Positions 5,041 to 55,025 of a stretch of DNA of 64,000 bases are shown one piece after another. The notes under the pieces are model-generated. The model had not been told where the DNA came from. It saw only the letters and a list, made by a program, of their open reading frames with translations, and did no database searches. Made by a program: the position numbers and the translations under genes. Source of the stretch: Bacteroidota bacterium (GTDB lineage: Bacteria > Bacteroidota > Bacteroidia > AKYH767-A > OLB10); NCBI GenBank assembly GCA_016699635.1, contig CP064983.1:3176078-3240077 (forward strand), in the 5' to 3' direction. Each line of letters starts with the position of its first letter. The first letter of the stretch is position 1.

Positions 5041-5175
5041 ATGTCAAAACAACCTCCAAAAATTAATCATGAAATAATTCGTGAAAGGGCATTAGATCGA
5101 ATTTTATTTATTCTTGAAATTGCTTTGGTTATTACCTTAATAGCCTTATGTGGTGTAATTATTACTTCACTTTGA
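5041..5175 (+). CDS. Candidate 44-aa small membrane protein upstream of the oxidase operon
   Basis: ATG at 5041 gives MSKQPPKINHEIIRERALDRILFILEIALVITLIALCGVIITSL*, a single hydrophobic helix. It is below the ORF-track length cutoff. Confidence 0.2.
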   Translation: MSKQPPKINHEIIRERALDRILFILEIALVITLIALCGVIITSL

Positions 5176-5641
5176 GAAATTAATGTATAAGTTAAATTCT
5201 ACAAGAAATCATTACGAGATTTTAAGAGAAACTTATGTTAAATTACGATTTAAGGTTTAAGCTACATGTGCCAAACATAAATGTTATAAAAGTATTTATA
5301 TACTTCTTTTGGATTCCTAAGAAATAGTTTATACGTTTGCACTACCTAATGTAGTTTAACGGATACATGGTAGCATGTTTTATATTTTATGCACCTGTAA
5401 CCCATAAAAAGGTTATATTACATCAACGGGAAATTGTTTTTGGAGGCAACCAAAATTCCGCTGGCTTGATGGCAATGCTTTGCCCCATTTTAAGAGGTAA
5501 AAAATGTCATAGATTCTTCAAAAATCTACAACTTTTCTCTACTCAATTTATTCATTCAGGAATTCGGATTAACAAACCTATACAAGTTAATCTTAATCAT
5601 CATATACATCACATTCACTTTAATTATTTAAACTAAAAGTT

Positions 5642-6193
5642 ATGCAACAACATTCCATTATGTTATTTTTTATGCTGCTTGTTGGTATTGGCACTATATT
5701 TTTTGTGTCAATCTTTATGTCTTCACTCAAAGCTGACAATGATTCAACAGGTGTAAAGAACCTGTTAAAAAAACGTTTTTGGTTTACCTTAATTCTCATT
5801 GTTGTACTTGGCATTTTTGCTGCAGCAACTTTACCAAAATCCCCATACTTCACTTATGCGAATGAAACACCTTCAACTGTGATTCATGTTGGCACAATGC
5901 AATTTTCATTTTTTCTTTCCACTAAACCCATTGACCCTAAAAGTCCAAGTGGAGAAACAATTGAAATCCCGCACGACCAACTCGTAGAATTCAGAGTAAC
6001 AAGTTTTGATGTCAATCATGGATTTGCTGTTTACGATCCTTCAATGCGATTGATTACTCAGGTACAGGCAATGCCCGGCTATGTCAACAACCTACGCTAT
6101 AAATTTACTGAACCTGGCGAGTATCACATTTTTTGCCTTGAGTTTTGTGGCACAGGGCATCCCGTTATGCAAACAACATTTAAAGTTATTTAA
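5642..6193 (+). CDS. Heme-copper oxidase subunit II with a CuA centre (cupredoxin)
   Basis: The CuA ligand pattern is H...C-x-E-x-C-x3-H-x2-M, seen in HIFCLEFCGTGHPVM. There is one N-terminal TM helix. Confidence 0.8.
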   Translation: MQQHSIMLFFMLLVGIGTIFFVSIFMSSLKADNDSTGVKNLLKKRFWFTLILIVVLGIFAAATLPKSPYFTYANETPSTVIHVGTMQFSFFLSTKPIDPKSPSGETIEIPHDQLVEFRVTSFDVNHGFAVYDPSMRLITQVQAMPGYVNNLRYKFTEPGEYHIFCLEFCGTGHPVMQTTFKVI

Positions 6194-6208
6194 TAAAAAA
6201 ATTAAATC

Positions 6209-7660
6209 ATGAATATAGATTCACTTAAGCTTAAAAAAATAAGCGCACTTTGGATAATTGTCATTCTTGTACTTTTTATTGCAAGTATTGTACTTGGAAT
6301 TCTTATGAGGCTCAATCAGGGAAAAGTTATTGAACAATCGCCACTTACTTTCTATACAAACATGACAACACATGGTTTAACCATGATTGGGATTTGGTTT
6401 GCTGCAGGAATGGTTGCCGTAAACTATCTTTTACAACGGTATGTGAAGACAAGTTATGGTGTTAACTTGTTTGCCTTTATTCTTACTGTTATTGGTGTTG
6501 TAATGCTTTGGGTAACTACCTATGCAGGTAAGTTTAGCACAGGCTGGACTTTTCTCTATCCATTACCATTCAGAGATCTCGGTTCGGAGAGTTGGTCAAC
6601 ACCGTTGTTTCTTATTTCGTTAACAATATTAGGTGTAGGATGGCTGGTGTGGAGTGTTAGTCTGATGGCTCAGATTTTTAAAAAATATACATTGGCCCAA
6701 GCCTTTGCATGGCAACATTTCAAAAGTAATCCAACTGTAGAGACACCACCTTTTATATTGATAACAACAGTGACATTAGTTGGTGTCATTGCCTCGTTAA
6801 TTGCAGCAGTAATTGTTATTGTATTGTATTTCGCAGAATATTTCTCTCATGGAGATTTTGTCAATGATGCTTTGCTGATGAAAAACCTGATCTATTTCTT
6901 TGGTCATACCATTGCAAACGAAATGCTTTATTTAGGCTTGGCTGTTATCTATGAAATTTTTGGAGAAGTAAGCGACAGGCCAAAATGGAAAATGACCTGG
7001 TATATTTCATTGGCATGGAATTGTGCAATGGTATTTATTTTAACTGCATTTTTTCATCACCTATACATGGACTTTGTGCAACCACAGGCTTTGCAAATTG
7101 TTGGACAATTGGTATCATATCTTGCAAGTATTCCATCTGCTGCTGTGACGGTTTTCAGTATTGTAGCAGCAGTTTATGGAGTTAAGGTAAGATGGTCTAT
7201 TGTAAACCTATTGTTCTTTCTTGGTGTTGCCGGATGGGTAATTGGTGGCTTAGGGGCTGTCATTGATGCAACTATTTCAAATAATATTATGCTGCATAAT
7301 ACGCTTTGGGTTCCTGCACACTTTCATACCTACAATGCCATGGGAAACGTTTTGTTTAGCATCGGTTTCTTTTACTGGTTCTCTACGCAATATGTTGACA
7401 AATTAGTTTTAAGTAAGCTTACAAAATACACTTTAACACTTCTAATTGTCGGTGGCATTGGCTTCTTAATGGCATTCTATGTGGCCGGTGCAAATTCAAT
7501 TCCAAGAAGATATAGTACATATCCTGTTGAACTCACATCAGGGCCTTATCTTGCTAAGGTAGGTGCTTTGTTTGCAACAATATATCTTATCGCTATTTTG
7601 ATATTCTTTTATAATATTGCTAAACGATGTTTCGTTATTTTGTCTGCTTCTTCGCGCTAA
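6209..7660 (+). CDS. Heme-copper oxidase subunit I (divergent; oxidase / NO-reductase superfamily)
   Basis: It has 12+ TM helices. All six canonical His are present: THGL in helix II, FFGHT in helix VI, FFHHLY in helix VII and PAHFHT in helix X. The HPEVY tyrosine is absent; the sequence reads GHTIANEMLY. Confidence 0.75.
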   Translation: MNIDSLKLKKISALWIIVILVLFIASIVLGILMRLNQGKVIEQSPLTFYTNMTTHGLTMIGIWFAAGMVAVNYLLQRYVKTSYGVNLFAFILTVIGVVMLWVTTYAGKFSTGWTFLYPLPFRDLGSESWSTPLFLISLTILGVGWLVWSVSLMAQIFKKYTLAQAFAWQHFKSNPTVETPPFILITTVTLVGVIASLIAAVIVIVLYFAEYFSHGDFVNDALLMKNLIYFFGHTIANEMLYLGLAVIYEIFGEVSDRPKWKMTWYISLAWNCAMVFILTAFFHHLYMDFVQPQALQIVGQLVSYLASIPSAAVTVFSIVAAVYGVKVRWSIVNLLFFLGVAGWVIGGLGAVIDATISNNIMLHNTLWVPAHFHTYNAMGNVLFSIGFFYWFSTQYVDKLVLSKLTKYTLTLLIVGGIGFLMAFYVAGANSIPRRYSTYPVELTSGPYLAKVGALFATIYLIAILIFFYNIAKRCFVILSASSR

Positions 7661-8379
7661 CATGTTTTAGCTTTTTAGGTTATGCTAATGATAATCACTC
7701 TGACTTCAGGGAAGAGCAGAATCTTTACGGAAAAATTTATAACGCACCACTCGGAATTGTTGGTAATAATAAAGTATCTTCTGTTGAAGAATTATATAAT
7801 CAGAAACCATTAATCATAGCTTTAGTTTTTACAAGATGTTATGGCATCTGCAATCCATTCTTACTTCAATTGAGCGAAAATATAAAGCATCTACAAAGCA
7901 ATTCAGATTTTAATATTTTAGTTATAAGTTTTGATCCAAGAGATAACCTTCAGGATATGACTAATCTTTCAAAGCAATATGGCCTTGAGAATAATCTTCA
8001 ATGGAACTTTGCAATAACCGATAGTATTGATGCATTTATTAATTCCATAGGATTTATTCCGAAATGGGATAGCGTTATCAAACAGTTTGACCACGATGCT
8101 TTGCTGGTTGGTGTAAATGAGAAAGGGCTTATAACTAAAAATCTTTTGGGAATCAGAATTGTGGAAGACGTACATAAAATGATAAGCAGCATTAATAATG
8201 TATTTACTCCCTCCTACCGTTTACCAACAAAAAGTAATATATTTTCATGCTTTAACTACGATCCGAAAACACAAACAAACAGACCTGGCTTAGGACTTTT
8301 ATTTGTAGCCTTGCCTGCAATCATAACTTTTCTTATTGTTACAATAATTGTTATTAAATCAAAGAGAACAGTTTCTTAG
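7627..8379 (+). CDS. SCO1/SenC-family copper chaperone (thioredoxin fold) with a C-terminal TM anchor
   Basis: The CxxxC motif appears as TRCYGICNP, and a conserved His lies downstream (QFDHDALL). It overlaps the subunit I 3' end, so the three genes form one operon. Confidence 0.65.
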   Translation: MFRYFVCFFALTCFSFLGYANDNHSDFREEQNLYGKIYNAPLGIVGNNKVSSVEELYNQKPLIIALVFTRCYGICNPFLLQLSENIKHLQSNSDFNILVISFDPRDNLQDMTNLSKQYGLENNLQWNFAITDSIDAFINSIGFIPKWDSVIKQFDHDALLVGVNEKGLITKNLLGIRIVEDVHKMISSINNVFTPSYRLPTKSNIFSCFNYDPKTQTNRPGLGLLFVALPAIITFLIVTIIVIKSKRTVS

Positions 8380-8484: not shown

Positions 8485-8838
8485 ATGTCATCAGTAAAAA
8501 TAAAACGGATTTATGAAGCACCGGACAAAAGTGATGGTTATAGAATGTTGATTGACAGGCTATGGCCAAGAGGTGTTAAAAAAGAAAATGCTGCCATTGA
8601 TGAATGGAATAAAGATATTGCATCATCTTCAGAGCTAAGAGAATGGTTTGGTCACGACCCTGAAAAATTCAAAGAATTTACAGCTCGTTATACAAAAGAA
8701 CTTCACAACAAGAATGATGAATTAAAGCAAATAGCCGGAATTGCAAAAAAGCAAAACTTGACGTTACTTTATGGCGCAAAAGATACAGAGCACAACCAAG
8801 CTGTAGTTTTACAAAAAGTATTGAGTAAAATGATATGA
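8485..8838 (+). CDS. DUF488 family protein
   Basis: The DUF488 signature reads LIDRLWPRGVKKE...ELREWFGHDPEKFKEF. Confidence 0.7.
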   Translation: MSSVKIKRIYEAPDKSDGYRMLIDRLWPRGVKKENAAIDEWNKDIASSSELREWFGHDPEKFKEFTARYTKELHNKNDELKQIAGIAKKQNLTLLYGAKDTEHNQAVVLQKVLSKMI

Positions 8839-9302
8839 GCACCAAACCAATTAAGCGACATGAGGCAATACAGTCCATAAGCAGAGAACATTATCAAGGA
8901 TTACTTTTTGGTTCTAAAATCAGGATGGGGCTTAAAAAACAAATAGAGCCTGACCGAATGGCAAAGTACGCTGTTTGGTTTTATAAAGAACATCTCATTC
9001 CTCACTTTGAAATAGAAGAGAAATATTTATTTCCGGTTATGAGCCCTGAAAATGAAATGATTCAAAGAGTACTTAAAGAACATCGCATGCTTGCTGATTT
9101 ATGTAAATCAGAATTGGAATTGGCTACAAACAGCAAACTTGAATTACTCGAAAAAACATTGGAAGCCCACATTCGCTTTGAAGAGAGAGTACTCTTTAAA
9201 GAAATTGGATCTATTGCTACATCTGAACAGCTCGAACTGATAAACAAACATCATAAAGAGGAAAAGTTTGTTGACAATTTATCTGACCCATTCTGGAAGT
9301 AA
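8835..9302 (+). CDS. Hemerythrin-like (HHE cation-binding) domain protein
   Basis: H/HxxxE pairs are spaced as in hemerythrin-like domains (EHYQG...HFEIEE...EHRML...HIRFEE). The start overlaps the DUF488 stop as ATGA. Confidence 0.55.
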   Translation: MSTKPIKRHEAIQSISREHYQGLLFGSKIRMGLKKQIEPDRMAKYAVWFYKEHLIPHFEIEEKYLFPVMSPENEMIQRVLKEHRMLADLCKSELELATNSKLELLEKTLEAHIRFEERVLFKEIGSIATSEQLELINKHHKEEKFVDNLSDPFWK

Positions 9303-9320
9303 CACCTACTCATAATTTCA

Positions 9321-9761
9321 ATGAACAACATGTTGCACTCAAACATACAAACAGAAAATATTTTAGTTGCCAGAAATACACGCCCGACAAGCATGCGTAT
9401 TTTAGTTTACAATTTCCTTGCAAAACAACAAGCTGCATTATCTATCACTGAGATTGAGAAACATTTTCAGCATGCTGACAGAATTACAATCTATCGTACT
9501 TTAAAAACATTTGAGGAGAAAGGCATTATACATAGCATTCAGGAAGATAATATAACCAAATATACTTTATGTGGATCTGCTTGTTCAGAACATACCCACT
9601 ACGATCAACATCTTCACTTTTATTGTAAGTCTTGCAAACAAACTACCTGCAAAACCGATATTGCCATTCCGCTAAACAACATTACCGGATTTAAAATTGA
9701 CGATATAACATTTTTTGCAAGAGGTATTTGCGAAAAATGCATTAACCCGACTTTGCAATAG
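9321..9761 (+). CDS. Fur-family metalloregulator, likely Zur given the neighbouring gene
   Basis: There is a winged-helix N-terminus plus C-x2-C...C-x2-C (CGSACSEHTH...CKSCKQTTC). Confidence 0.75.
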   Translation: MNNMLHSNIQTENILVARNTRPTSMRILVYNFLAKQQAALSITEIEKHFQHADRITIYRTLKTFEEKGIIHSIQEDNITKYTLCGSACSEHTHYDQHLHFYCKSCKQTTCKTDIAIPLNNITGFKIDDITFFARGICEKCINPTLQ

Positions 9762-9808: not shown

Positions 9809-11809
9809 ATGACGCATAAACACATTTACGACTCCAGCGGAAAACAACTTTGTTGTACTCTTGAAGATAATATTTATGAAAATGCAGGTCGTGTTGATTT
9901 GAAAGAAAATCACGATCACAATGATCATGACCATACGCATCATGAGTCCGGTATGTTTTCAATATATCTGCCCGGATTAGTTTCTTTAGTGCTTCTTCTG
10001 GCAGGAATGCATTTTGATTATTGGAATACCTTCTCCTGGTTTAATGGGTGGATTCGTTTAGTTTGGTATATAATAGCCTATATCCCGGTTGGATTTCCTG
10101 TAATCAAGGAAGCTTATATTGGAATTACAAAAGGAAATATTTTTTCTGAGTTTTTTCTGATGACAATAGCTACCGTTGGTGCATTTGCAATAAAAGAATA
10201 TCCTGAAGGTGTTGCTGTAATGTTATTCTATGCTGTGGGAGAATTACTTCAGACAATGGCTGTAAGAAGAGCAAAATCAAATATTAAAACCTTACTTGAT
10301 CAACGTCCTGATGTTGCAACAGTATTACGAAATAGTAACACTGTTTCTGTAGATGCTAACGATGTTGGCATTGGCGAAGTAATACTTTTAAAACCAGGCG
10401 AAAAGTTAGCACTTGATGGTATTTTACTTTCTGATAACGGAACTTTTAACACTGCTGCACTAACAGGAGAGAGTATGCCCGATGCAAAAGTGAAAGGAGC
10501 TTCAGTTCTTGCAGGCATGATTAACCTTAATACTGTTGTAAAAATTAAAGTCACAGCCGCTTATGAAGATAGCAAGTTGAGCAAGATGCTTGAATTAATT
10601 CAAAATGCATCTGCACAGAAAGCTCCCACTGAATTATTCATCAGAAAATTTGCAAAAGTTTATACCCCTATTGTTGTTGGACTTGCTGTTGCCATCACTT
10701 TATTGCCCTACTTTTTTGCTCATGAGTATATTTTTCGTGATTGGTTTTACAGAGCTTTAATATTTTTAGTCATATCATGTCCTTGTGCATTGGTAATAAG
10801 TATTCCTTTAGGATACTTTGGAGGCATTGGCGCTGCCGGCCGGAATGGTATTTTGGTTAAAGGCAGTAATTATTTAGATGTACTTGCATCGGTGCAGCAT
10901 GTTGTGATGGACAAAACCGGAACAATTACTGAAGGCGTATTTAAAGTTCAGGAAGCTTTAATTTTTCCGGAAGAAAATAGAAATAAAATTTTGCAAATGG
11001 TTAATGCGCTTGAAAAACACAGTACACATCCTGTTGCAACAGCCATTCACAACTATGTTTCAAATACCTCAACAATTGAACTGGAAAAGGTAGAGGAAAT
11101 TTCAGGTCATGGAATGAAAGCATTTGTTAATGGCAAAGAGTTGTTAGTAGGAAATTTCAAGCTTTTATCCTTACATAACATATCATTTAATGTTGATCCT
11201 GCTACCATAAAGCATACCGTCATTGCCATTGCTTTTGATAGAAAATTTGCAGGCTACATCATCATTGCAGATAGCATTAAAACCGATGCTGCCGCTGCCA
11301 TACAAAAATTAAAACAGATGCATGTAGATGTTACGATGTTGAGTGGTGATAAAACAACTGTTGTAAATTCAGTTGCTGAGCAAACAGCAATTTCTCATGC
11401 TTATGGTGAGTTACTGCCTGAGGATAAAGTTGAAAAAGTTAAATCCATAATCAATCAAAAACAAACAGTAGCTTTTGTTGGTGATGGTGTTAATGATGCA
11501 CCCGTTATTGCATTAAGTCATGTTGGTATTGCAATGGGTGGACTTGGCAGCGATACTACTATTGAAACTGCAGATGTTGTAATTCAGGATGACAACCCGA
11601 TTAAAATTCCTTTAGCAATAAATATTGGAAAGCAAACAAAGAAAGTGGTCTGGCAAAATATCACTATGGCGTTTGTAATAAAAGCAATAGTTTTAATATT
11701 AGGCTCAGGTGGATTGGCAACTATGTGGGAAGCAGTGTTTGCAGATGTTGGTGTTGCACTATTAGCAATCATCAATGCAATGCGTTTATTAAAAATGAGA
11801 TTCGATTAG
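9809..11809 (+). CDS. Heavy-metal (Zn/Cd/Pb-type) P1B-type ATPase
   Basis: It has an N-terminal His-rich segment HDHNDHDHTHHE, the CPC motif SCPCALVIS, DKTGTIT and the hinge VGDGVNDAP. Confidence 0.9.
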   Translation: MTHKHIYDSSGKQLCCTLEDNIYENAGRVDLKENHDHNDHDHTHHESGMFSIYLPGLVSLVLLLAGMHFDYWNTFSWFNGWIRLVWYIIAYIPVGFPVIKEAYIGITKGNIFSEFFLMTIATVGAFAIKEYPEGVAVMLFYAVGELLQTMAVRRAKSNIKTLLDQRPDVATVLRNSNTVSVDANDVGIGEVILLKPGEKLALDGILLSDNGTFNTAALTGESMPDAKVKGASVLAGMINLNTVVKIKVTAAYEDSKLSKMLELIQNASAQKAPTELFIRKFAKVYTPIVVGLAVAITLLPYFFAHEYIFRDWFYRALIFLVISCPCALVISIPLGYFGGIGAAGRNGILVKGSNYLDVLASVQHVVMDKTGTITEGVFKVQEALIFPEENRNKILQMVNALEKHSTHPVATAIHNYVSNTSTIELEKVEEISGHGMKAFVNGKELLVGNFKLLSLHNISFNVDPATIKHTVIAIAFDRKFAGYIIIADSIKTDAAAAIQKLKQMHVDVTMLSGDKTTVVNSVAEQTAISHAYGELLPEDKVEKVKSIINQKQTVAFVGDGVNDAPVIALSHVGIAMGGLGSDTTIETADVVIQDDNPIKIPLAINIGKQTKKVVWQNITMAFVIKAIVLILGSGGLATMWEAVFADVGVALLAIINAMRLLKMRFD

Positions 11810-28629: not shown

Positions 28630-31600
28630 ATGAGTATGAAAAAGTTTGTTTACTATATTTTATTATTTCTGCTACCTGTAACAGCATGGTCGCAGTGTAT
28701 GATGACACCTGTTTCTTTACAGGACAGAATCAGTAATGCAACTATTGTTGTTGAAGCTACTGCCTTGCAACAAAACAGTTACTGGAACAACAGTAATGAT
28801 TTCATCTACACTTCCACTACACTTTCAATTTCTGCAGTTTATAAAGGCACAATTCAGGGCAGTCAGATTGCATTGATTACAGAAGGCGGTATTGTTGGTA
28901 ACATCATGATTAAGTCAGAACCATCTTTGAATATTAAACCCGGACAGAATGGAATATTTTTTCTAATTCCACACAGCCAGCCGTCAGGAAGTAAACTGTC
29001 AGGAATGTTTGAAGGATATGCTTTGAGTCAGAGTTTAATTTTGTTTGATGAAACAAGTAATTCAGCAACAGGTCCGTTTGAAAACTACAGTGACATCAAT
29101 GCATTACGAAATCAGATTATCAATGCTACAGGTGGCGTTCAGCGCATTTCTTCTATTGCACCACAGCAGGCACCTCCATCTGTAAATAAAATAATGATTC
29201 CGCCAACTATTGCTTCAATAGTACCGGCAACAACTACGGCAGGAACATTTTCAACAATCACAATAAACGGAAATAATTTTGGTGCCACCTATGTTAACGG
29301 AACTTCAAACGTTGAATTTCCTGATGCCAATACTGGAGGTGTAAGTTATATTTCTGCTCCGCAAAATCATATTCAGTCGTGGAGCAACACACAAATTCAG
29401 GTTTGGGTACCTACACAAGGTGGAAGCGGATTAATAAGAGTAACAAACAATCTTGGAGAAACTACAACTTCTGCAATTTCAATTACCATTAATTATAATG
29501 AAACAAATGTTGTTAGTGGTAGTAATTATTATCAACCCGACTTGATTAACAATAATGGAACCGGAGGTTATACTTTTCGTTACAACACAACATTTAATGG
29601 TAATGCTGCTGCTGTTGCTGCATTTGAAAGAGCATTACAAACATGGCGCTGTGGAACTTTTGTAAACTTCAACCGCTCGGGTACTACTGCAACAACTTGT
29701 CAGGCTTTAGACGGAACTAACTTAGTGACCTTTGATGGTTCATGTGCATTGCCTGCCGGAGTTCTCGGAATTTCGTACAGTTATTACAGTGCATGCGCAA
29801 CAGGCGTTTGGTATCTTAACGAAAACGATTTAAAGTTTCGTACCAATGGAACCGGAGGCATAAACTGGAACTATGGCCCTGCTGCAACCGGTGGTGGCAA
29901 TTTCGATTTTGAATCAGTTTGTTTGCATGAATTAGGACACAGTCATCAGTTAGGTCACACTATTGTGCCTGTGACAGTAATGAATTATGCTATTGGCCCA
30001 AATACAGACAGACGTACACTTACACCAATCAGTGAAACTGCCGGTGGAAATGATATAATGAGTCGTAGTGTGGTGACTAATGCCTGCGGACCAACAGCTA
30101 TGGTTGCGCTTTCTGCGGGAAGCTGTGCCATCAATGCACCTATTGCTGATTTTAATGGTACACCACTGACAGGATGCAATACGCTGAACGTAACTTTTAC
30201 AGATGCATCCATCAATACTCCAACATCGTGGACGTGGTCTTTTCCAGGAGGGGTACCAAATACTTTTGTAGGACAGAATCCTCCTGTAATTTTTTATGCC
30301 GCACCGGGCAACTACGCAGTTACCCTAACTGTAAGCAATGCATTTGGAAGCAATACACTTACTAAAACAAATTATGTACAGATTGCAACCTGCCCTCCAC
30401 CTACACCTGATTTTACAGCTAATCCAACAACCGTTTGTCAGGGAAATACTGTACAGTTTGTAGATTTGAGTACCAACACACCAACAAGCTGGAGTTGGAC
30501 TTTTCCGGGAGGTACACCGGGAACATCTACTGCACAAAACCCTGTGATTACTTATGCCACTGCAGGAACTTATAATGTTACATTAACCTCAACTAATGCC
30601 TATGGCAGCAACACATTAACAAAAACAAATTACATAACAGTAAACAATTGCCCTGCTCCACCGGTCGCTGATTTTAGTGCATCGCCAACAACACTGTGTT
30701 CCGGTGGTACAGTAAACTTCACCGATCTTTCAACTAACACACCCACATCATGGTCGTGGACATTTGCCGGTGGCACACCGTTATCATCTGTAGCACAAAA
30801 TCCAACAATAACGTATAACACACCCGGCACTTACGCAGTTACATTAATTGCAACTAATGGTGGTGGCTCGAACACAAAAACTGTATCAGGATATATTACG
30901 GTAAATCTTTGCTCTGCACCTGTTGCATCTTTTTCAGGATTTCCTACAACCATCTGCGAAGGTCAGGCTGTGACTTATGTAGATCAGTCAACCAACTCAC
31001 CATCATCATGGGCATGGACTTTTACCGGTGGGCGCACTGCAGCATCTGCCTTGCAGAATCCTGTTATTAGCTATGCTACTGCAGGCACCTACACTGTTTC
31101 ATTAACTGCAACAAATGCTTTTGGCAACAACACTTTTACTAGAACAAATTACATCAATGTTGTTACATGTCCGTCACCTGGAACAGGACTTATTGTCAAT
31201 GACGGGTCACTGATTTTTGTTCAACCTACTGCAATGATGCATGTTGAAGGTGGTGTTATTAATCAGGATAACCTGAGCAACATTGGTACATGGGATAACT
31301 CCGGTCAGGTGCGTATACAAGGCGACTGGACAAACAATTCATCTGGAAATGCTTTTATCAACAGCAGCCCGGGTGAAGTGGAACTGTTTGGCGCCAATCA
31401 AACTATAAGAGGTAGTACACCTACTTTCTTCTTTACCTTAAATCTGACAGGCACAGGTATAAAAACCCAAAATATTGATGCAACGGTTCAGGTCACAAGG
31501 AAATGTGATGCATGTTACCAATACAGCACCGGCAGCTATTACGCGTACAGGTGGACTTAACTCAACTCCTGTTCAGGGTTTTGTGAGTAGCACAGGCAGT

Positions 31601-32629
31601 GGTAAGTTGTGGCGAAACACCAACACTACATCTGTGTATTTATTTCCTGTAGGTTCTTCAATACCTCCCGCACGTTTTCGTCCAGTTGAAATAAAGCCAT
31701 TGAGTGCAACACCCAATACTTTTGCTGTACGTATGGTTAATAATGACCCGAATACTGATGGTTTTAACCGTGCTGTACGTGAACCCACCTTAGGTGCAGT
31801 AAATGCAGGATGGTATCAGAAAATAAACAGAGTTTCCGGTAGTTCGTTAGCGGAGTTTTCGCTTTATGCCGATGATGCACAGGATGCCATTGCTTCATGG
31901 CCATTACTCAAACTTTGTCAGTGGGGACAGGCTGCCCCTCCTGTATGGTGGAAAGATATTGGCGGTGCTGTAACTCCGGGCGCTTCACCTGTGTTAGGAT
32001 CGGTGCTGCGTACCAACTGGAATAATTTCAGTAATACAGAAAATTTCAATATTGCACCAGAATCAAATCCACTGCCTGTTGAATTACTTTCGTTTACCGG
32101 TAACTGTAAGAACAACATTGTTAATCTGAATTGGACAACTGCATCTGAAATAAACAATCATTATTTTGAATTGCAACAATCAGCCGATGGAAATGATTTT
32201 GTTACTATAGGTCGTGTTGAAGGTAATGGTACCACCATCAAACAAAATTTTTATTCTTTTACCATTGATCAAAAAACTGAACACACATTTTTCCGATTGG
32301 TGCAATATGATTTTGATGGAAGAGCTAATGTATTGCCGGCTATTTTAGTTTCGTGTAACACAGAAAGTCCTGCAACAGTAAATATCAACCTGATGCCCAA
32401 TCCGGCAAAAGATGTTTTTGTTTCTGACATATATCTTCCTGAAAAAACACAACTCTCCATGAAGGTATTTAATACCATCGGACAATTGGTTATGGAAGAA
32501 CAATGGACACTTGATGCAGGCTATCATAAACAAGCAACACAGGTTTCTACTCTTGCAAAAGACATTTACAATATCCGCTATACTTCAAACTCGTTTAACA
32601 TAGTAAAACAAATAGCTATTGTAAAATAA
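28630..32629 (+). pseudogene. Large T9SS cargo zinc metallopeptidase with 4 tandem PKD domains and a C-terminal Por sorting domain; one frameshift at 31475..31560
   Basis: The 976-aa ORF has a signal peptide, an HELGHSHQLGH zinc-binding motif and four ~85-aa PKD repeats (SWTWSFPGG.P). The overlapping 384-aa ORF carries the CTD (PNPAKDVFV...DIYNIRY...). Confidence 0.65.
30136..31165 (+). repeat. Four tandem, diverged PKD-domain coding repeats (~255 bp each)
   Basis: The protein-level block starting D/SF(S/T)A.P(T/S)T.C recurs four times. Confidence 0.6.
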
Positions 32630-44943: not shown

Positions 44944-45363
44944 CTACTTTGCATTTAGTTCTTCCCTTAGTTTATTCATTGAGTTTTCAAACAGTTTATT
45001 GCTTTTCAATTTACATTCCCAAATAGTTAATACTGTCCAACCTGATTTTTTTAATTCTGCCTTTACTTTTTTGTCTCGTTCAATATTGTTCTGAATTTTT
45101 GTTTTCCAAAATTTTGCATTTGAAGTTGGCAACTTTGCCTTGTTGCAATTATGTCCATGCCAAAAACATCCATGAACAAAAACTATCGTTTGATACTTGG
45201 GTAAAACTATATCTGGTGTCCCTGCAAGAGTTTTTACATTTTTCCGAAACTTAAATCCTTCTTTAAACAAAAACTTTCTGACTGATATTTCCGGCTTAGT
45301 TTCCTTCCCGGAAATTGAAGCCATAATTTCACTTCGTTTCCGTTTAGAAAAAATGTCAGCCAT
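44944..45363 (-). CDS. vsr: Very-short-patch-repair endonuclease (T:G mismatch-specific)
   Basis: The Vsr signature is FVHGCFWHGH...TPDIVLPKY...VLTIWECKL. The start overlaps the upstream gene's end by 8 nt. Confidence 0.85.
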   Translation of the reverse strand: MADIFSKRKRSEIMASISGKETKPEISVRKFLFKEGFKFRKNVKTLAGTPDIVLPKYQTIVFVHGCFWHGHNCNKAKLPTSNAKFWKTKIQNNIERDKKVKAELKKSGWTVLTIWECKLKSNKLFENSMNKLREELNAK

Positions 45364-47137
45364 TTAATGCACGAATTGATTCAATAATTGTTACAATATC
45401 GTTGTAACTATTTGGTTTATCACTCAGCCACTTTTCTAAAAATGTTTTCTCACTTGCTTCAATATTTCTCTTATCACCAGTCATTGCCTCCGCAACTAAA
45501 AGAAATTTCTCTTTGAAATCTTGTGTAGCGTTGATTCTTTGAATGTATTCAATTTTACCCATCGCAGTCAAAATAGTTTCAGCTAAAACTTGATTCCAAA
45601 TAATTTCTTCTGGAACTGATAATGGTAAGTAGGAAACATTTCGCAAATAAAATTTCAGATACTTTTCTCGCAACACTTTTTCTTGGTCTGCTCTTGCCCC
45701 TGCATTTGGATTTCCGTCAGGATAAAACTTAACATTGACTCCTGTTTGATTTTGGATTTCCTGTTGGTATCGTTCATTGGTTTGTTCTGCTGCTACAATA
45801 GAATCAGGATTAAAGTGAGCATGTCTTTGGTCTCCGTCAAAAACTATAAACTTATTCCGTTCGTTTGCATGACTGTAAACACTAATGAAATGTTCTTTAA
45901 TAACGCTTTCACCTCCCGTGTAAAAAGTAACATTGAAAAGTGAAGCAGTTGCTTGTCCTAATTCTCTTAATACACCATCAATAATTTGCTTTGAAAGCAA
46001 ATCTTCAACAATGATTTGTTTTCCTTGCCGGATTTGTTTGCTCCAAATGATAAAACGCTTCATCAGGTGTGATTTCATTTTTAACATTGAATTTTCCAGA
46101 AGGTAATAGTGAGAAAACTTTTATTGCGTTTGGCGGAAGTTCCTCAATAATACTTGGTGAGTGGGTTGAGATTACAACTTGTAATCTTTTTCGTCTTGTT
46201 TCTTCAAGCAAAAATTGCTTCAATCGTTTTTGCGCTCCCGGATGCAATGAAACTTCCGGCTCATCAAGTAAAATGAGAGAATATTCTTTTGCTCCTAAAA
46301 CTTCAAGCACCAACTTTACAACTGCCATTTCTCCGCTTCCTGCAAACGCTTCGGAATATGAGTAACTGGCGGTTTCAAAAATTACGGAGTAGCCCCATTC
46401 TTCAAAAAGTTTATGCTTTACAAACTTTCCCGAAACATATTTTTTACCAAGTATGGTAGAAATATGCTGAAGTTCAATTGCTGTGAAAGTTTTGAGTTGC
46501 TCGTTTTTGTTTTCACCGTAGCGATGAATTATAACATTTGTTCCGTCAATAATTCTTCGAAGAAAAACTGAATGCTTCCGTAAGTAGTCCTGTTTGTTAT
46601 TTATCGTTTTAGACTTTCTTGGTTTCTTGAAATAAAAGTATTTGTCAAATGCACTTAACTCTGAACGGAAATCAATATACACTACATCTTTTTCAATCGG
46701 TTGATTTCTTTTTCCCTCTGCTATCTTCTGCATTCCGTAGCTGATATTCGGTCTTGCAGTTTCCCAATAGTCCGGATTGTTTCGTTTGAAAATTCTTTGT
46801 TTCAAAACTTCAAGCGGTCTGCCACGATTGTCTTTGTAAACATAAAAGAAGCTATGCCTATCGCCTCCTTCCGAAACTTCTACAATCGGGTCAACAGCAG
46901 TTGAAAACCAAAATTCAAACGGAGTATTTTTTTCGGTGCTCCATAAAGTGCATGAAGTGTTGAACTTTTTCCCGAACCGTTTTGCCCTACAAAAACTGTC
47001 AGAGGAAAATCAAAAATTATTCGTGTGTTTTTTTCAAGGTTTCGGAAATATGGAAACTGAATATACTCAATGAAATTTCTGAAAGCATTTCTTGCTTTCA
47101 TTCTTGAAATTTCAGCTATGAGAGTTGGTATATTCAC
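45356..47137 (-). pseudogene. OLD-family nuclease-like protein: ABC-type ATPase (Walker A/B, D- and H-loops) fused or coupled to a C-terminal Toprim domain; three ORFs in shifted frames
   Basis: ORF 46880..47137 has Walker A VGQNGSGKSS. ORF 46005..46805 has Walker B/D-loop LILLDEPEVSLHP and H-loop ISTHSP. ORF 45356..46087 has Toprim motifs IIVEDLLSK and FIVFDGDQ. The ORFs overlap by 83 and ~75 nt. Confidence 0.6.
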
Positions 47138-47142
47138 AAATG

Positions 47143-48770
47143 CTATGGTTTTTCAGAGTCGTTAAGTCGTTTGAATAAATGAGATAACAAACTAAGGAAG
47201 TCCAAACAATCTTTTTCTGAAAACAAACCTGTTTTACTTAACTCAAGGTGTTCCTCGTGTTGCAAAGGGTTTCTGCCGCCTGCAACAATACCTTCGGATA
47301 GATAGTGTTGTCCTTCTTCAATATTGGTTATTGTATCTTTTGTAAAATCTGTTCCATCAGTTTTCTTATACTTTTTCGTTACCGAAAGTTTACGACCAGA
47401 AAAAACTTCTCCCATCATACTTCTTTCGCTGCCATTTGTGCTACCTGACTTCTTTCTTACTTCTGAGGTATATCGTTTTAATGCTTCAATAAAAGCCGTG
47501 TAATAGTCAGCACTCTGATAATATTTTTCAGACACCACTTTAATTTCATTTTCTAAATTTCTCCAATGGAGATTTGCATATTCAGGGGCTATATCATGCA
47601 ATAATCTTGTCACCACCTGTTGTGTGTCTTCTGAAATTTCAGGTGTGTCATCCAATAGGTTTACAATTGTTTCAACTTGCCCTTGCACATTTTGAGGAAG
47701 TTTTTCTAACCAATCTTTTACATTCAAGTTTACCTTTTCACTTATCTTCTTTTTCTTTTTCTCCTTACGAAATTCACGCCACTGCCTTTCTATTATTGAA
47801 AGGCATGATGCAATATATTTCCTGAGTGCGGATGTCTTGGCATTTTCCCAGTCAATGGATTGACGGTTTGTTGAGATTACATCTTCTTCCCAATTGTCAA
47901 TAAAATCTACATTCAACCATCCTGTGGCATAAGAATAAAAGTGGCTTGATTCTGATGGACCAAAAAATTCAGGTGTGTTAACCATTCTGCCGTTAGCAAA
48001 AAGTGTAACGCCTCTGAGAGCAGCTTTGAGAGGTTTTTCTGTGGTAATTATTGTTCCATGAATTTGAACTTTGTCGGAATAATCCTTCTCATTTACTTTG
48101 ATAATTTCTTGTATGTCCCACTCAAATTCAGGAGTAATGTTATCATACTTCAGTTTGTTATCAATCTTTATCGGCTTGCTATCATTCAGCAATAAGTAAA
48201 CAATAAACTTGTCTTGAAAGTTGAAAAGTTTTGCAATGCTTTCTGCATATTCTTCAAGAGGAAATCCGGTTTTTCTTTTCAGATTGGTTAATGTGATTCT
48301 TGTTCCTTTGAAAATTTCCTTTTCTGATAAATGGTCAAATCTGGGTTCATAATCTTTCCCTTTCCAAGCAAGTATTTCATTCCAGTCAAGATTGAAACTT
48401 ACTCCCGATTTTCCTTGGCAAGTTGTAATGTTTATAGTGTCGCCAATTCCAAATAGAGCTAACTTTCCTAATCCTTTTTTTCCTGTTGGAATTCTATCGC
48501 AACTTGATTTTTGACCTTCCTCTCGTCTGTTTCTTCCTATTCTTAAAAAGTAATCATTCACTTCCGCAAACGACATTCCCGTTCCGTTATCCTCAACAAT
48601 TACTTTTTCTCCCCTTCGTCATACAAACGCACATGAACCTCTGTAGCACACGCATCATAAGCGTTTGCAATTAATTCCGCTAATGCCGGTGGCATGTTGG
48701 AATACATTTTAACACCAAGATGTTTTATGGTGTTAGCTTCAAAGGTCATGTAAAGTTTATCATTGCTCAT
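47143..48770 (-). pseudogene. MutL/MORC-like GHKL ATPase with a C-terminal HEPN (Rx4H) domain; frameshift at ~48577-48600
   Basis: ATG at 48770 overlaps the dcm stop as ATGA. Bergerat motifs: N-box ELIANAYDA, then in the 477-aa ORF frame G1 (DNGTGM), G2 GKKGLGKLALFGIGD and GTRITL. The C-terminal HEPN motif is GGRNPLQHEEH. Confidence 0.6.
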
Positions 48771-51654: not shown

Positions 51655-54600
51655 TTACCGTTTTATAATCTTTGAATTGTAAAATTTATTGTCTGCTTTT
51701 ATTTGCAGATAGTACATGCCTTGTGAGATATCATTCAGCGGCATTTTATAAACATCTGAAATGATATTAGCTGCTGAATACACCAGCTTACCATCCATTG
51801 CAAATAATTTCACTTCAACATTTTTAAAATCTTTGGTAATTATGGTTAACTCATCCTGAGCAGGATTGGGATAAACAGTTACACTATTGATAGAACTAAA
51901 ATCTTTAGCCGAAGTTACCATTGTTGATGGTGGAAACTGAATATTATCGAGCATAGCCAAATCCTGTCCGCCCGTGCAACACACTTCATCCTTAATATAT
52001 GCCCACGTGAGTGTATGTTGTCCTAAAGTTATCGGATATGATTTATATGCCCAGCCATACACACCGGAATAGGAATCAATCAATGTACCATCTATGTAGA
52101 AACTGAGAAAATCCCATCCCATTTCACTTGATATGAGCATATAAAACGAAATAGAATCGTTGTTATAAACATTTACTGTTATTGCCAGATCAGAAGTGTC
52201 GCCATCAGCAATTGTTGCAGAACGTGCAGAATACGCCCCTTGAAAAGTTCCGCTGTTAGTAATAGTCCATGGATGACTTCCATTATTAAGCCAGGGATAT
52301 GTAGTGAAATTTCCGTATTCGAAATTCTCTAAAATCTCCCCTGCAACCATGTTAAATGTCTTGTTGTCGGAATATGGGTTGGCATCAATATTAAATTGCA
52401 TATCGAAGGTTGAACCAATCTGAATGTTTGATGCAAGTGAGACATTAAAGGTAGCATCAACATCAGATAATGACTGTACAACACCTGTATTGTACGAAGT
52501 ATTGTTGATAGTAAGATATGGACTGCTTGTTGCCAGCGTTGCTGTTGAAGCTGTAGTTGCACTATGTCCTTTGTTATTTGTCTTTATTGTAACATCGGCA
52601 GTTTCACCTGGTTCAAGAATACCGTTGTTGTTTCCTGTAGGGTCAGACACTGTAATGGAATATACTTGCAGCATAGGTGCTTTCAACAAATGTGTTATGG
52701 ATGTACTCCACACTGTACCTGCTGAATCGGTTAATACAATATCAAATACTGCAGGTGTGTTATCAGGAACAAAAGCTGCAACAGTGTAATTAAATGCATT
52801 GGTAATTCCAGCAGCGTTTCCACTCTGAATATTCACTTTGTTTAAACTGCTGCTGTTTATTGTAACATACGGACAAGTAGTAGTTACCGTAAGTCCAACC
52901 CCCACAGCATCGCCCTGTCCAAAGTTTTCAAGCATTAAGTCAACATCTATAATCTCATTATAATCTGCAAGTTGATTTGCATTTCCTCCTGCATCATTAA
53001 TAACATTGCTTGTCAGCGAAACGTAAGGTCCTGTAGTTGCTACAACAGGAATTGCCACCATGTATGGAATGCCGTTAAATGCAGTAATTGTTAAATACAG
53101 AGTATCGAGTGCAGTAATGGTGTTGAAATTTAAAATTACATTCCCTCCTATCACCAATCCTGTTGCAAGTATTTGTCCATTGCTGCTCAAACATGCAAGT
53201 CACTGTCTGTATTACAGGCAATATTTAGTGAAGCACCGGGAAACAATACAGGGCTGTGACTAGCAGTAATTGCATAAGGTGTTGCTGTACGAACATTTAA
53301 TGAAGGGTCGCCAAAACAATGCCATGTGTCTGTCATTTCGAAACCTGCTGCACCATACTGATCATTCATGTGCATGCAGCCATTCATACTCAGTCCGCCA
53401 AAAGTTCTTTTAATGTTTGAAGAATTTGTGCCAACCAATAAGTCAACCATTTCGTCCTGTGCATCCATTGGCGGATTCCATGATTGGTTTATGCTCGACA
53501 TAAATGTGGCTACTGCACCTGAAGGCTGTCCATTATATTGTGCTCTCAAAAATGATTCTGCAAGACAAGTAGCATTTGCAAACTCTCCATTGACACAAGC
53601 TACACTCCAGATAAAAGGCAACATGCCTGTGTTTGTTAATGCTGTTGCATTGGCATTAGAAAAACCTGTTGTGCCTAATGAAGCAGAACTTCCATGACCA
53701 GTATAAGTGATTATAGAAGCACCATTATTTATTTCTGATGATAACATTGCAGCAGTAGGATTACCCGACATATCGTTTCCACCTTGTGAGCCATCATACA
53801 ACTCAGCAACATCAGTATAAGTGAATGCTAATTCTTTTCCGCGTATCACCTGCTGATGCTGAAAGTCCATTTCATTGTCATCACCCGGTCCTTGGTCAGA
53901 GCCAATGCATATTCCTTTTGAATACCAGTTTACACCTGGCGTTGGCAACATTTCATAATCAACAGTACGCTGAACTTGTGTAGTAACATCTGCCACTGTC
54001 TGTGCACTGAATCGTCCAACAAATACTTCTGCATAAGAATCATTCCCCACAAGATAACCATACGATGGGTCAGATGCACCACCTGATAAAACAGGAGTGG
54101 GAATTTGTTGTGCATCGCCTACCAACAAAACATATTTCAGATTATGTGTGTTGTAATAATTCTGAATGAATGTTTTTATCTGTTGTGCTGTGCTGCCTGC
54201 TGTGGCTACATCAACCATTGAAACCTGCAAGCCTCTTTTTATCTTCCAGTCAATAAAGGGCTGCATAGCTGCCATAAAAGATGCATCACTGATAATGAGC
54301 ATTTCACCATCTTCATTCACCGGTAAATAATTAATAAATGAACCTGCATTGCGAAAAACGTTCTGATAGATATTTGCAAAATCACGATCAACTTTCTGGA
54401 GTGATGTTGTGCGAGATAATGTATTAACAGAAGTGCCGGCTTTACTTTGCAGGGTAACTTTAAATTTTGAAATTACTTTTAAAGTTTGTGTTGCTGCATT
54501 ATAGCTGAATGGATTTACTACCACTGTCTGCCCACGAAAATCACGAAGTATAAACGGGCTACGCAAAAAGCCACTGTTAGCAGGAAAAAAAACATTCTGA

Positions 54601-55025
54601 CTGTAAATATCTCCAAAGCGATAAGGCACATCAGATGGCTTAATATCTCTGTAAAGATTTCCTTTAGATGGTGCTATCTGAATATTCTGAAAAGTAAGTT
54701 CCTCAATTGACTCAATATTCAGGCTCATATCTCCGTCATCAGGAATAATCACAGATAAAGCAAACTTTGGCAAATCCGGTGTTCCTTCTTCCATTCTTGG
54801 AGTCATTTCGGGGCTTGAAATGGTATAGTACTCTCCTGCTAAAGATTTTACTCTGTGCTTTTCAAATCCTGAAACAGAAATTTCCATTACAGTATTATCA
54901 GGTGTACCACTTACTATAACAGCAGATTTTGAAGGATTGTCAGAGGTAATCTTAACCCATTCTGCATTTCCCTGTAAAGCAAACAATGCTATAAAGAAAG
55001 TGGTAACGATTGTCTTTTTTTGCAT
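51655..55025 (-). pseudogene. Gingipain-like C25 cysteine peptidase with Ig-like/FN3-like domains and a T9SS C-terminal sorting domain; frameshift at ~53190
   Basis: The 612-aa ORF has a signal peptide, the catalytic His block ITYTGHGSS and the Cys block IWSVACVNGEF. The 511-aa ORF, overlapping by 4 nt, ends in the CTD VYPNPAQDELTI...MYYLQIKAD. Confidence 0.7.

Follow-up and report, generated by a model that had tools for sequence, protein, structure and literature searches.

The heme-copper enzyme family sNOR is one of the branches proposed to make nitrous oxide (N2O), and its cluster norS-norY-senC-orf1 was first named in Nitrosomonas eutropha. The family has been described before (Stein 2007; Hemp and Gennis 2008; Murali et al. 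2024); the original list includes Deinococcus, Geobacillus and Silicibacter (PMC8756737), Damo_0801-0802 of Methylomirabilis are called sNOR in the literature, and the class of 493-amino-acid (aa) proteins in Bacillaceae is counted as sNOR by Murali et al. In Bacillus azotoformans, type II qCuANOR (BAZO_04705-04710) combines 493 aa in 12 helices with a subunit II of two helices, and a SenC paralog is linked to it (PMC3475470). Since Murali et al. list a qNOR, a bNOR and an sNOR for this organism, one of each, type II was taken to be its sNOR. The bNOR (qCuANOR) of the same organism is a proven electrogenic nitric oxide (NO) reductase (PMC11214002; PMC3475470) with 568 aa in 13 helices, and its subunit II has a single helix and comes with a 46-aa peptide (PMC3475470); the enzyme has a B-type K-channel with a conserved Ser, occurs in Bacillales only and is said not to be closely related to sNOR, i.e., to be convergent. 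Here we analysed a window of 64,000 nucleotides (nt) from a Bacteroidota bacterium (assembly GCA_016699635.1, contig CP064983.1, positions 3,176,078 to 3,240,077 of the forward strand). Three adjacent genes in it, encoding a CuA-bearing subunit II, a catalytic subunit I and a copper chaperone, very probably belong, judging from their sequences, to the sNOR family, to which the window adds a Bacteroidota member. No literature discussing sNOR in Bacteroidota was found, and curated sNOR data sets probably include Bacteroidota members already.

Three open reading frames (ORFs) were packed closely on the plus strand within 5642-8379 (all positions are those of the window). The first (5642-6193, 183 aa) encoded a NorS/CoxB2-like subunit II and matched Pfam COX2 (PF00116, E 3e-8); the second (6209-7660, 483 aa) encoded a NorY/CoxA2-like subunit I matching COX1 (PF00115, E 3.9e-53); and the third (7627-8379, 250 aa) encoded a Sco/SenC-type copper chaperone matching SCO1-SenC (PF02630, E 1.4e-5). 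The genes for subunit II and subunit I were separated by 15 nt, and 34 nt were shared between the subunit I gene and the start of sco, so a single operon is the natural reading of the trio. A preliminary description, made from the letters of the DNA, had named the same three genes and considered sco to be co-transcribed with subunit I; the Pfam matches and ORF coordinates showed all three to be present, and the spacing fits one operon. The two motifs it had quoted, FFGHTIANEMLY and FFHHLYMD, were both found exactly in subunit I. The trio (~183, ~480 and ~250 aa) was kept in nearly all loci examined from the Bacteroidota clade described below. The host DNA was low in GC (~35%), several ORFs of the window carried type IX secretion (T9SS) sorting domains, and the named close homologues were all from Bacteroidota.

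Subunit I was aligned with MAFFT to its 47 nearest Tyr-less relatives, 10 Tyr-bearing relatives, one A-type sequence and the ba3 oxidase of Thermus thermophilus. The ba3 reference sequence was checked against the Protein Data Bank (PDB), where 1EHK_A matched residues 1-562 with a near-maximal score and the alignment with 3eh3_A showed a single-residue difference. Residues H55, H233, H283, H284, H371 and H373 of the query corresponded to H72, H233, H282, H283, H384 and H386 of ba3, and N237 (6917-6919) stood at the position of the cross-linked Y237. This position was occupied by Asn in 48 of the 48 members of the Tyr-less group (hereafter the Asn clade), in which the six His ligands were invariant, and by Tyr in all 11 Tyr-bearing B-type relatives, ba3 counted. 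The same register was obtained when subunit I was compared pairwise with bovine and human COX1 in phmmer, with ffGHtiaN lying over ffGHpevY and ffHHlym aligned with waHHmf of mitochondrial COX1. H55 and H373 were assigned to the low-spin heme, H371 to the high-spin heme, and H233, H283 and H284 to the non-heme metal (CuB/FeB). The AlphaFold2 model of subunit I (pLDDT 82, pTM 0.87) contained 12 transmembrane helices and placed the His ligands in helices II, VI, VII and X. Thus six His ligands in these four helices and a helix VI without the cross-link Tyr, as first described for this locus, were confirmed, the former by the ba3 alignment and the model and the latter by both alignments.

Subunit I scored far below every NCBIfam oxidase cut-off (104 bits compared with 671 for CtaD, and likewise for CyoB and QoxB) and is therefore no standard A-type enzyme. 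When the model was searched against the PDB with Foldseek, the top 50 matches were only A-family (TM-score ~0.80) and ba3 (~0.74) subunits I, with an identity of at most 21%; cNOR, qNOR and cbb3 structures were absent from these 50, and the sNOR family has no solved structure. This fold search excludes C-family and cNOR-like folds only, as scores of 0.80 and 0.74 do not separate the A family from the B family. The identity of subunit I to B- and A-type oxidases was 21-25%.

The preliminary description had also suggested that the Tyr following the His pair in helix VII (Y286, in HHLY) might replace the cross-link Tyr, and had likened the site to that of C-family oxidases. Neither suggestion held. 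Tyr was found at the Y286 position in yeast Cox1 and in 7 of the 10 Tyr-bearing B-type relatives, with Phe in ba3 and its closest relatives; Y286 is no migrated cofactor residue, because it is common in enzymes that already carry the canonical cross-link. In the C family the cross-link Tyr lies six residues before the His pair. Helix VII of the query reads MVFILTAFFHH, with no Tyr ahead of the His pair, and the redox partner is a CuA subunit and not the cytochrome c of CcoO/CcoP, so a cbb3-type enzyme was rejected. The Tyr-less CuA-type families have been described as showing no migrated Tyr (PMC11214002).

Hydropathy placed two transmembrane helices at the N-terminus of subunit II (residues ~6-24 and ~46-64), followed by a periplasmic cupredoxin domain. 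Its CuA site was complete (H126, C165, E167, C169, H173 and M176), as had been noticed earlier from the letters, and H126, C165, C169, H173 and M176 aligned one-to-one with H114, C149, C153, H157 and M160 of Thermus ba3 subunit II. The CuA domains of that subunit were the best PDB sequence matches (E 1e-13 to 3.5e-14). In the Sco-like protein, a signal or anchor at the N-terminus was followed by a thioredoxin-like domain, and a transmembrane helix (~225-243) lay at the C-terminal end. The protein matched 3me7 (E 5e-7) and Bacillus subtilis Sco in the PDB, and its CYGIC motif (C71, C75) and H156 aligned with the Cu-binding CxxxC and His of the latter. The SCO protein of the Ruegeria sNOR cluster also matched it (E 1e-6, 22% identity), and the Cu motifs of the two lined up.

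A search of 1.84 billion protein cluster representatives gave 66 matches to subunit I below 1e-30. All full-length matches between E 1e-176 and ~1e-37 that could be read by motif scan had GHxxxN and HHLYMDF-like motifs, and Tyr-containing oxidases (GHP[VI]VY) first appeared at ~1e-35. One search gave more than 1,500 homologous proteins below E 1e-10; the best 120 listed were 69-96% identical to the query, and the named ones among them came from Flavobacteriaceae, Cyclobacteriaceae, Saprospiraceae, Chitinophagales and Bacteroidales. Among the Asn-clade members that carry names are NC10/Methylomirabilis oxyfera (P0132), Cytobacillus, many Bacillaceae (493-aa proteins), Deinococcaceae and Trueperaceae. 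A homologue on the megaplasmid of Ruegeria pomeroyi DSS-3, which we take to be the former Silicibacter pomeroyi, was found by tblastn against plasmids. In neighbour-joining trees the Bacteroidota sequences formed a clade with 100% bootstrap support inside the Asn clade, which also held Ruegeria pomeroyi, NC10/Methylomirabilis, Deinococcaceae/Trueperaceae and Bacillaceae type II and parted from all Tyr-bearing sequences in 74-80% of bootstraps. These trees placed subunit I outside the Tyr-bearing B-family oxidases. Ammonia-oxidiser NorY was recovered neither by a contig scan seeded with an NC10-first alignment, which returned NC10-like, Eremiobacterota, Planctomycetota, Deinococcota and Actinomycetota loci instead, nor by a Cytobacillus-seeded protein search, which returned mostly named Bacillaceae and metagenome sequences. 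The NCBI names of homologues P0015-P0112 ('cbb3-type subunit I') proved to be a generic label, and in the Ruegeria pair SPO_RS20755/20760 the CuA subunit II is named 'cytochrome C oxidase subunit I'. Such generic database names hide the sNOR family in genome surveys.

The residue at the Tyr position is Asn in sNOR and in CuANOR/bNOR, Gln in eNOR and Glu in cNOR and qNOR, and gNOR has an Asp substitution (PMC8756737, Table A4; PMC3475470). In gNOR one metal-ligand His is replaced by Asp and subunit II has no CuA ligands; nNOR combines a cNOR-type Glu site with His/Met heme ligation (PMC11214002). In the query, Asn237, the three metal-binding His, the bis-His ligation of the heme and the CuA site left only sNOR and bNOR as options. 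The sNOR family is recognised by Asn at this position together with a CuA subunit and a senC gene, all of which the query has. The earlier suggestion of a CuA heme-copper enzyme without the cross-link Tyr, possibly sNOR, eNOR or gNOR and not aa3 or ba3, could thus be narrowed to sNOR: eNOR was excluded as residue 237 is Asn and not Gln, and gNOR as all three His and the full CuA site are present. A ba3-type O2 reductase of the B family would carry GHP-x-V-Y where the query has GHTIAN, and nNOR, cNOR and qNOR would carry a Glu ligating FeB at the Tyr position, with His/Met heme ligation in nNOR, a cytochrome c subunit in cNOR and a fused subunit in qNOR, where the query has Asn, bis-His ligation and CuA. 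From bNOR the query was set apart by its 483 aa, 12 helices, two-helix subunit II, variable Ser position and a host in Bacteroidota and not Bacillales. For bNOR, eNOR, gNOR and nNOR these distinctions were made by published diagnostic residues and architecture, not by their sequences.

The residues along the putative proton path were also compared with those published for sNOR. The family has been described as having no conserved ba3 S309, with a conserved Glu elsewhere instead, and no Trp/Tyr hole-hopping residues (Murali et al.). At the S309 position, Ser was found in ba3 and in 10 of 10 Tyr-bearing relatives, and V, A, S or P across the Asn clade (the query has S310, and Ala prevails among the Bacteroidota sequences). 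T312 and Y248 (ba3 numbering) were kept in the Asn clade, and ba3 W229 was replaced by Tyr or Phe. An inspection of the channel residues, which the preliminary description had advised, gave a putative modified K-type set comprising Y241, Y248, E249, T314 and S317 in the query. Besides the Bacteroidota clade, E249, which follows the channel Y248, occurred in the sNORs of Ruegeria and Bacillaceae and in some further sequences, and it was absent from the NC10 and Deinococcota branch. It is the best candidate for the published sNOR Glu. Together, the variable S309 position, the kept T312 and Y248, and the partly shared E249 may correspond to the published sNOR channel. The ba3 pair D372/N366, which lies near the heme a3 propionates, was swapped to N359/D353 across the whole Asn clade. 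Y241, E249, D353 and Y375 were clade markers that the query had in common with named sNOR lineages.

The Bacteroidota sub-clade differed from the named sNORs in three ways, being without orf1, having an invariant Glu238, and carrying a Sco with a C-terminal membrane anchor. Glu238 (6920-6922) directly follows N237; it was conserved in the Bacteroidota clade and in the nearest outgroup representative (P0121, 57% identity), and the surrounding stretch GHTIANEML was at least 98% conserved in 121 Bacteroidota-clade sequences. Named sNORs had Ala, Ser, Leu or Ile at this position, and descriptions of bNOR-type enzymes do not include such a Glu either. The Glu238 carboxylate could serve the non-heme metal or the proton-delivery path. 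It is conceivable, but improbable in our judgment, that the Bacteroidota clade represents a distinct active-site variant inside sNOR, with Glu238 giving an FeB-like site of three His and one Glu. Such a site would be a convergence on cNOR and qNOR within a CuA-type, orf1-less and potentially electrogenic enzyme. If this were true, many Bacteroidota scored as nor-less ('N2O terminators') would carry a functional and mechanistically distinct NO reductase.

The best explanation of the trio, and a probable one on its sequence features, is a two-subunit membrane sNOR with a copper-insertion chaperone, which would turn NO into N2O. NO reduction is likely to be its physiological reaction as well. Sco/SenC, translated together with the subunits, would load copper into CuA. 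The CuA of subunit II would take its electrons one at a time from a donor in the periplasm, which is probably a cupredoxin or a c-type cytochrome. The bis-His low-spin heme (H55/H373) would receive these electrons and hand them over to the site made up of the high-spin heme (H371) and a non-heme metal (H233, H283 and H284), which could be Fe or Cu. The binuclear site most likely catalyses the reaction 2 NO + 2 e- + 2 H+ -> N2O + H2O. Protons would probably be delivered by the modified K-type path through Y241, Y248, E249, T314 and S317, and the reaction would be electrogenic. With Asn237 in place of the His-Tyr cofactor, the site would be unable to give the fourth electron for O2 reduction. 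NO would probably be removed under micro-oxic or nitrosative-stress conditions in the Bacteroidota host, the operon apparently lying outside any dedicated denitrification gene cluster.

Downstream of the trio, four further genes formed a tight run on the plus strand: a DUF488 protein (8485-8838, 117 aa); a hemerythrin-HHE domain protein (8835-9302, 155 aa, Pfam Hemerythrin E 7e-11) overlapping the DUF488 gene by 4 nt; a Fur-family regulator (9321-9761, 146 aa) with its best score as Zur-like; and a P1B ATPase (9809-11809, 666 aa) with its best score as the Zn/Cd type and a His-rich N-terminus. The whole run was repeated with the same ORF lengths and order in a 97%-identical locus (L092), and a partial 96%-identical locus (L089) had the DUF488 gene in the same place. 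The hemerythrin-HHE protein, which had no NCBIfam match to the iron-sulfur repair di-iron protein RIC, is possibly an accessory or co-regulated neighbour of the sNOR genes. When neighbours were surveyed with Pfam on 144 ORFs from 27 related loci, the counts were 10 for CMD, four each for Rrf2, Crp-type helix-turn-helix (HTH) and Usp domains, and three for hemerythrin; the Rrf2 regulators were spread over 4 of the 27 loci. A Cyclobacteriaceae contig carried, upstream of the trio, genes for Rrf2, RIC (above the NCBIfam cut-off), DUF2249, DUF1858 and two AhpD-like CMD proteins. In Flavobacteriaceae bacterium F89, Rrf2 lay directly upstream and heme a synthase (CtaA) one gene further. In a 79%-identical relative, Rrf2 followed the trio at a distance of ~2 kb, and ~3 kb downstream lay a NirK-like gene with a fused cupredoxin; the latter matched TIGR02376 with E 4.5e-43, below the cut-off. 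The pattern is suggestive, fitting a role in NO or redox stress better than a dedicated denitrification cluster.

Several points weigh against a NO-reducing sNOR. Neither the window nor any of the Bacteroidota-clade loci examined had orf1, the fourth gene of the classical clusters. This gene was also absent from all NC10-like loci fetched, and present in the Proteobacteria and Bacillaceae clusters. It encodes a conserved membrane protein, 38% identical (E 4e-29) between Ruegeria (L129, 7964-8533) and Cytobacillus (L085, 7712-8269), the latter with a weak DUF1404 match. The neighbourhood beyond the trio was variable across the 27 related loci, and no nir, nos or Rrf2 gene was found among the larger ORFs scanned in the 64-kb window. 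Subunit I was only 32-36% identical to named sNORs. The tree was built by neighbour joining only, branching inside the clade was weakly supported, and the comparison was made without reference sequences for ammonia-oxidiser NorY, bNOR, eNOR, gNOR and nNOR. Two tyrosines, Y241 and Y375, were specific to the Asn clade. As late as 2026 the experimentally confirmed NO reductases were cNOR, qNOR, bNOR and eNOR, with no sNOR purified or assayed, and the sNOR of Nitrosomonas europaea has been argued from transcript data to be a high-affinity O2 reductase (PMC6967387).

The last point leads to the main alternative, which we regard as unlikely: a terminal O2 reductase from the B-type lineage, with high affinity and NO tolerance, whose activity does not depend on the canonical His-Tyr cofactor. 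The N. europaea genes were induced 2.7- to 10.8-fold under O2 limitation, which its authors took to argue for an oxidase role (PMC6967387); descent from B-family oxidases, the retained K-type channel and the CtaA gene two genes upstream of the trio in Flavobacteriaceae bacterium F89 would agree with it. However, every characterised heme-copper O2 reductase has a cross-linked Tyr, and the Tyr-less eNOR was found to have no oxidase activity (PMC11214002). The query clade had Asn at this position in every member and no clade-specific Tyr at a known migration site, and the Rrf2, RIC and NirK-like genes near the trio in relatives point to NO. Less likely still is another reaction, such as NO dismutation or the reduction of N2O, peroxide or another small molecule, or a NO sensor or sink of no respiratory significance. 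Further Tyr-less heme-copper branches have been proposed as NO dismutases or N2O reductases (PMC11214002), the neighbourhoods were rich in stress genes (AhpD-like CMD, Usp and hemerythrin) and not in denitrification genes, and the Bacteroidota clade had the extra invariant Glu238 beside Asn237. By contrast, the proposed NO dismutase and N2O reductase families derive from qNOR/cNOR and not from the B family (PMC11214002), and the query does not differ in its active-site residues from bNOR, whose NO reductase activity is proven. Assignment to another CuA-type family (bNOR, eNOR, gNOR or nNOR) is hardly credible: bNOR has the same Tyr-to-Asn site (PMC3475470) and references for these families were missing from the tree, but the Gln of eNOR, the Asp of gNOR without CuA and the Glu with His/Met of nNOR stand against the Asn, three His, CuA and bis-His ligation of the query, and bNOR, with ~568 aa, 13 helices and a one-helix subunit II plus 46-aa peptide against 483 aa, 12 helices and a two-helix subunit II, keeps a channel Ser whose position varies in the query clade and is confined to Bacillales. 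An sNOR that reduces NO to N2O is accordingly the reading we prefer.

The region upstream of subunit II contained an intergenic block of ~170-185 nt (5322-5505, plus strand) that was nearly invariant in four close relatives. In a four-way DNA alignment the block was ~85-94% identical and the flanking intergenic DNA was far more diverged; the block was found in very close relatives only. It contains TACGTTTG (5334-5341), which resembles what we take to be the Bacteroidetes promoter box consensus TAnnTTTG, and at its end a small GGCAA/TTGCC hairpin precedes a short run of T. The block is a candidate for the operon's promoter and leader. No Rfam match was obtained inside the block, and its predicted fold was no better than that of shuffled sequences (z = -0.9). 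FNR/CRP-type palindromes were not enriched, with 82 matches found and 96 expected, and a scan for sigma-70 promoters and terminators stayed at background level. An 89-aa ORF at 5367-5636 was rejected as a gene, having only 54-56% protein identity between loci whose subunit I was 96% identical and an unconserved 3' half. Further upstream, 466 nt from subunit II, a 44-aa ORF (5041-5175, plus strand), MSKQPPKINHEIIRERALDRILFILEIALVITLIALCGVIITSL, encoded a single-helix membrane peptide. The peptide was identical at 39 of 44 residues in the 97%-related locus L092, where several of the DNA differences were synonymous by eye, and was also called in L088. It was found in very close relatives only and recalls subunit IIa of ba3 and the 46-aa peptide of bNOR.

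Elsewhere in the window, a gingipain-like C25 peptidase on the minus strand (51655-55025) was apparently split into two ORFs overlapping by 4 nt. The first (53187-55025) held the propeptide and Peptidase_C25 domains, and the second (51655-53190) the C25 C-terminal Ig-like domain and a T9SS tail; the split may be due to a frameshift, a sequencing error or a genuinely split gene. Also on the minus strand (44944-48576), a gene for a Vsr very-short-patch repair endonuclease (44944-45363) adjoined overlapping ORFs at 45356-46805 and a gene for a Hypoth_Ymh protein (47143-48576), and the region may be a restriction-modification or defence islet. On the plus strand (28630-32629), a 976-aa protein with four PKD domains was followed by an overlapping 384-aa ORF with a T9SS tail. 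The GC content rose locally to 0.44 at 30-32 kb, compared with ~0.35 elsewhere in the window.

Taken by itself, the window holds a recognisable member of a described family, which is an ordinary result. The clade around it is of wider concern, as a large and highly conserved group of Bacteroidota has the sNOR signature in full. The phylum is regarded as a major consumer of N2O, and an overlooked NO reductase would change their genome-based nitrogen-cycle scoring. Some members of the clade, such as Gelidibacter japonicus, have been cultured and would offer practical material for a first biochemical test of sNOR.

Compared with the known systems, ba3 oxidase (PDB 1EHK/1XME) shares with the query the fold (Foldseek TM-score ~0.74), the six His, R449/R450, D287, Y248 and T312, and among solved structures its subunit II comes closest to that of the query. 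However, the two subunits I are only 21% identical, ba3 has 13 helices and the query 12, and Y237, W229, Y244 and D372/N366 of ba3 are replaced by N237, Y229, L244 and the swapped N359/D353. The bNOR of B. azotoformans, compared by description, resembles the query in its predicted site of three His and Asn, its CuA subunit, the linked SenC and its B-family ancestry. Type II of B. azotoformans is like the query in the change of Tyr to Asn, the 12 helices in a subunit I of ~490 aa, the two-helix subunit II and the linked Sco/SenC. A Cytobacillus representative (P0137) matched the query with E 4.7e-68 and 34% identity, and E249 was present in both. The Bacillaceae cluster differs from the query in belonging to another phylum, in having an orf1/DUF1404-like gene and in lacking Glu238, and at the place of SenC Cytobacillus had only an 81-aa ORF without a Pfam match. 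In the Ruegeria pomeroyi DSS-3 megaplasmid (NC_006569, SPO_RS20760-20745), subunit II, subunit I and Sco were in the same order as in the query. The Ruegeria cluster consists of a divergent Rrf2 gene, subunit II (157 aa), subunit I (476 aa), SCO, orf1, a formate/nitrite transporter and a cytochrome c, and Rrf2 regulators adjoin the cluster both there and in several Bacteroidota relatives. The query differs in its longer Sco with a C-terminal membrane anchor and in having no adjacent nitrite transporter or cytochrome c gene. The subunits I of the two clusters were 35% identical (E 3e-77) and the cupredoxin domains 49%. Both subunits I had ~480 aa and no extra C-terminal helix, and both carried the six His, N237, Y241, Y248, E249, D353, N359 and Y375.

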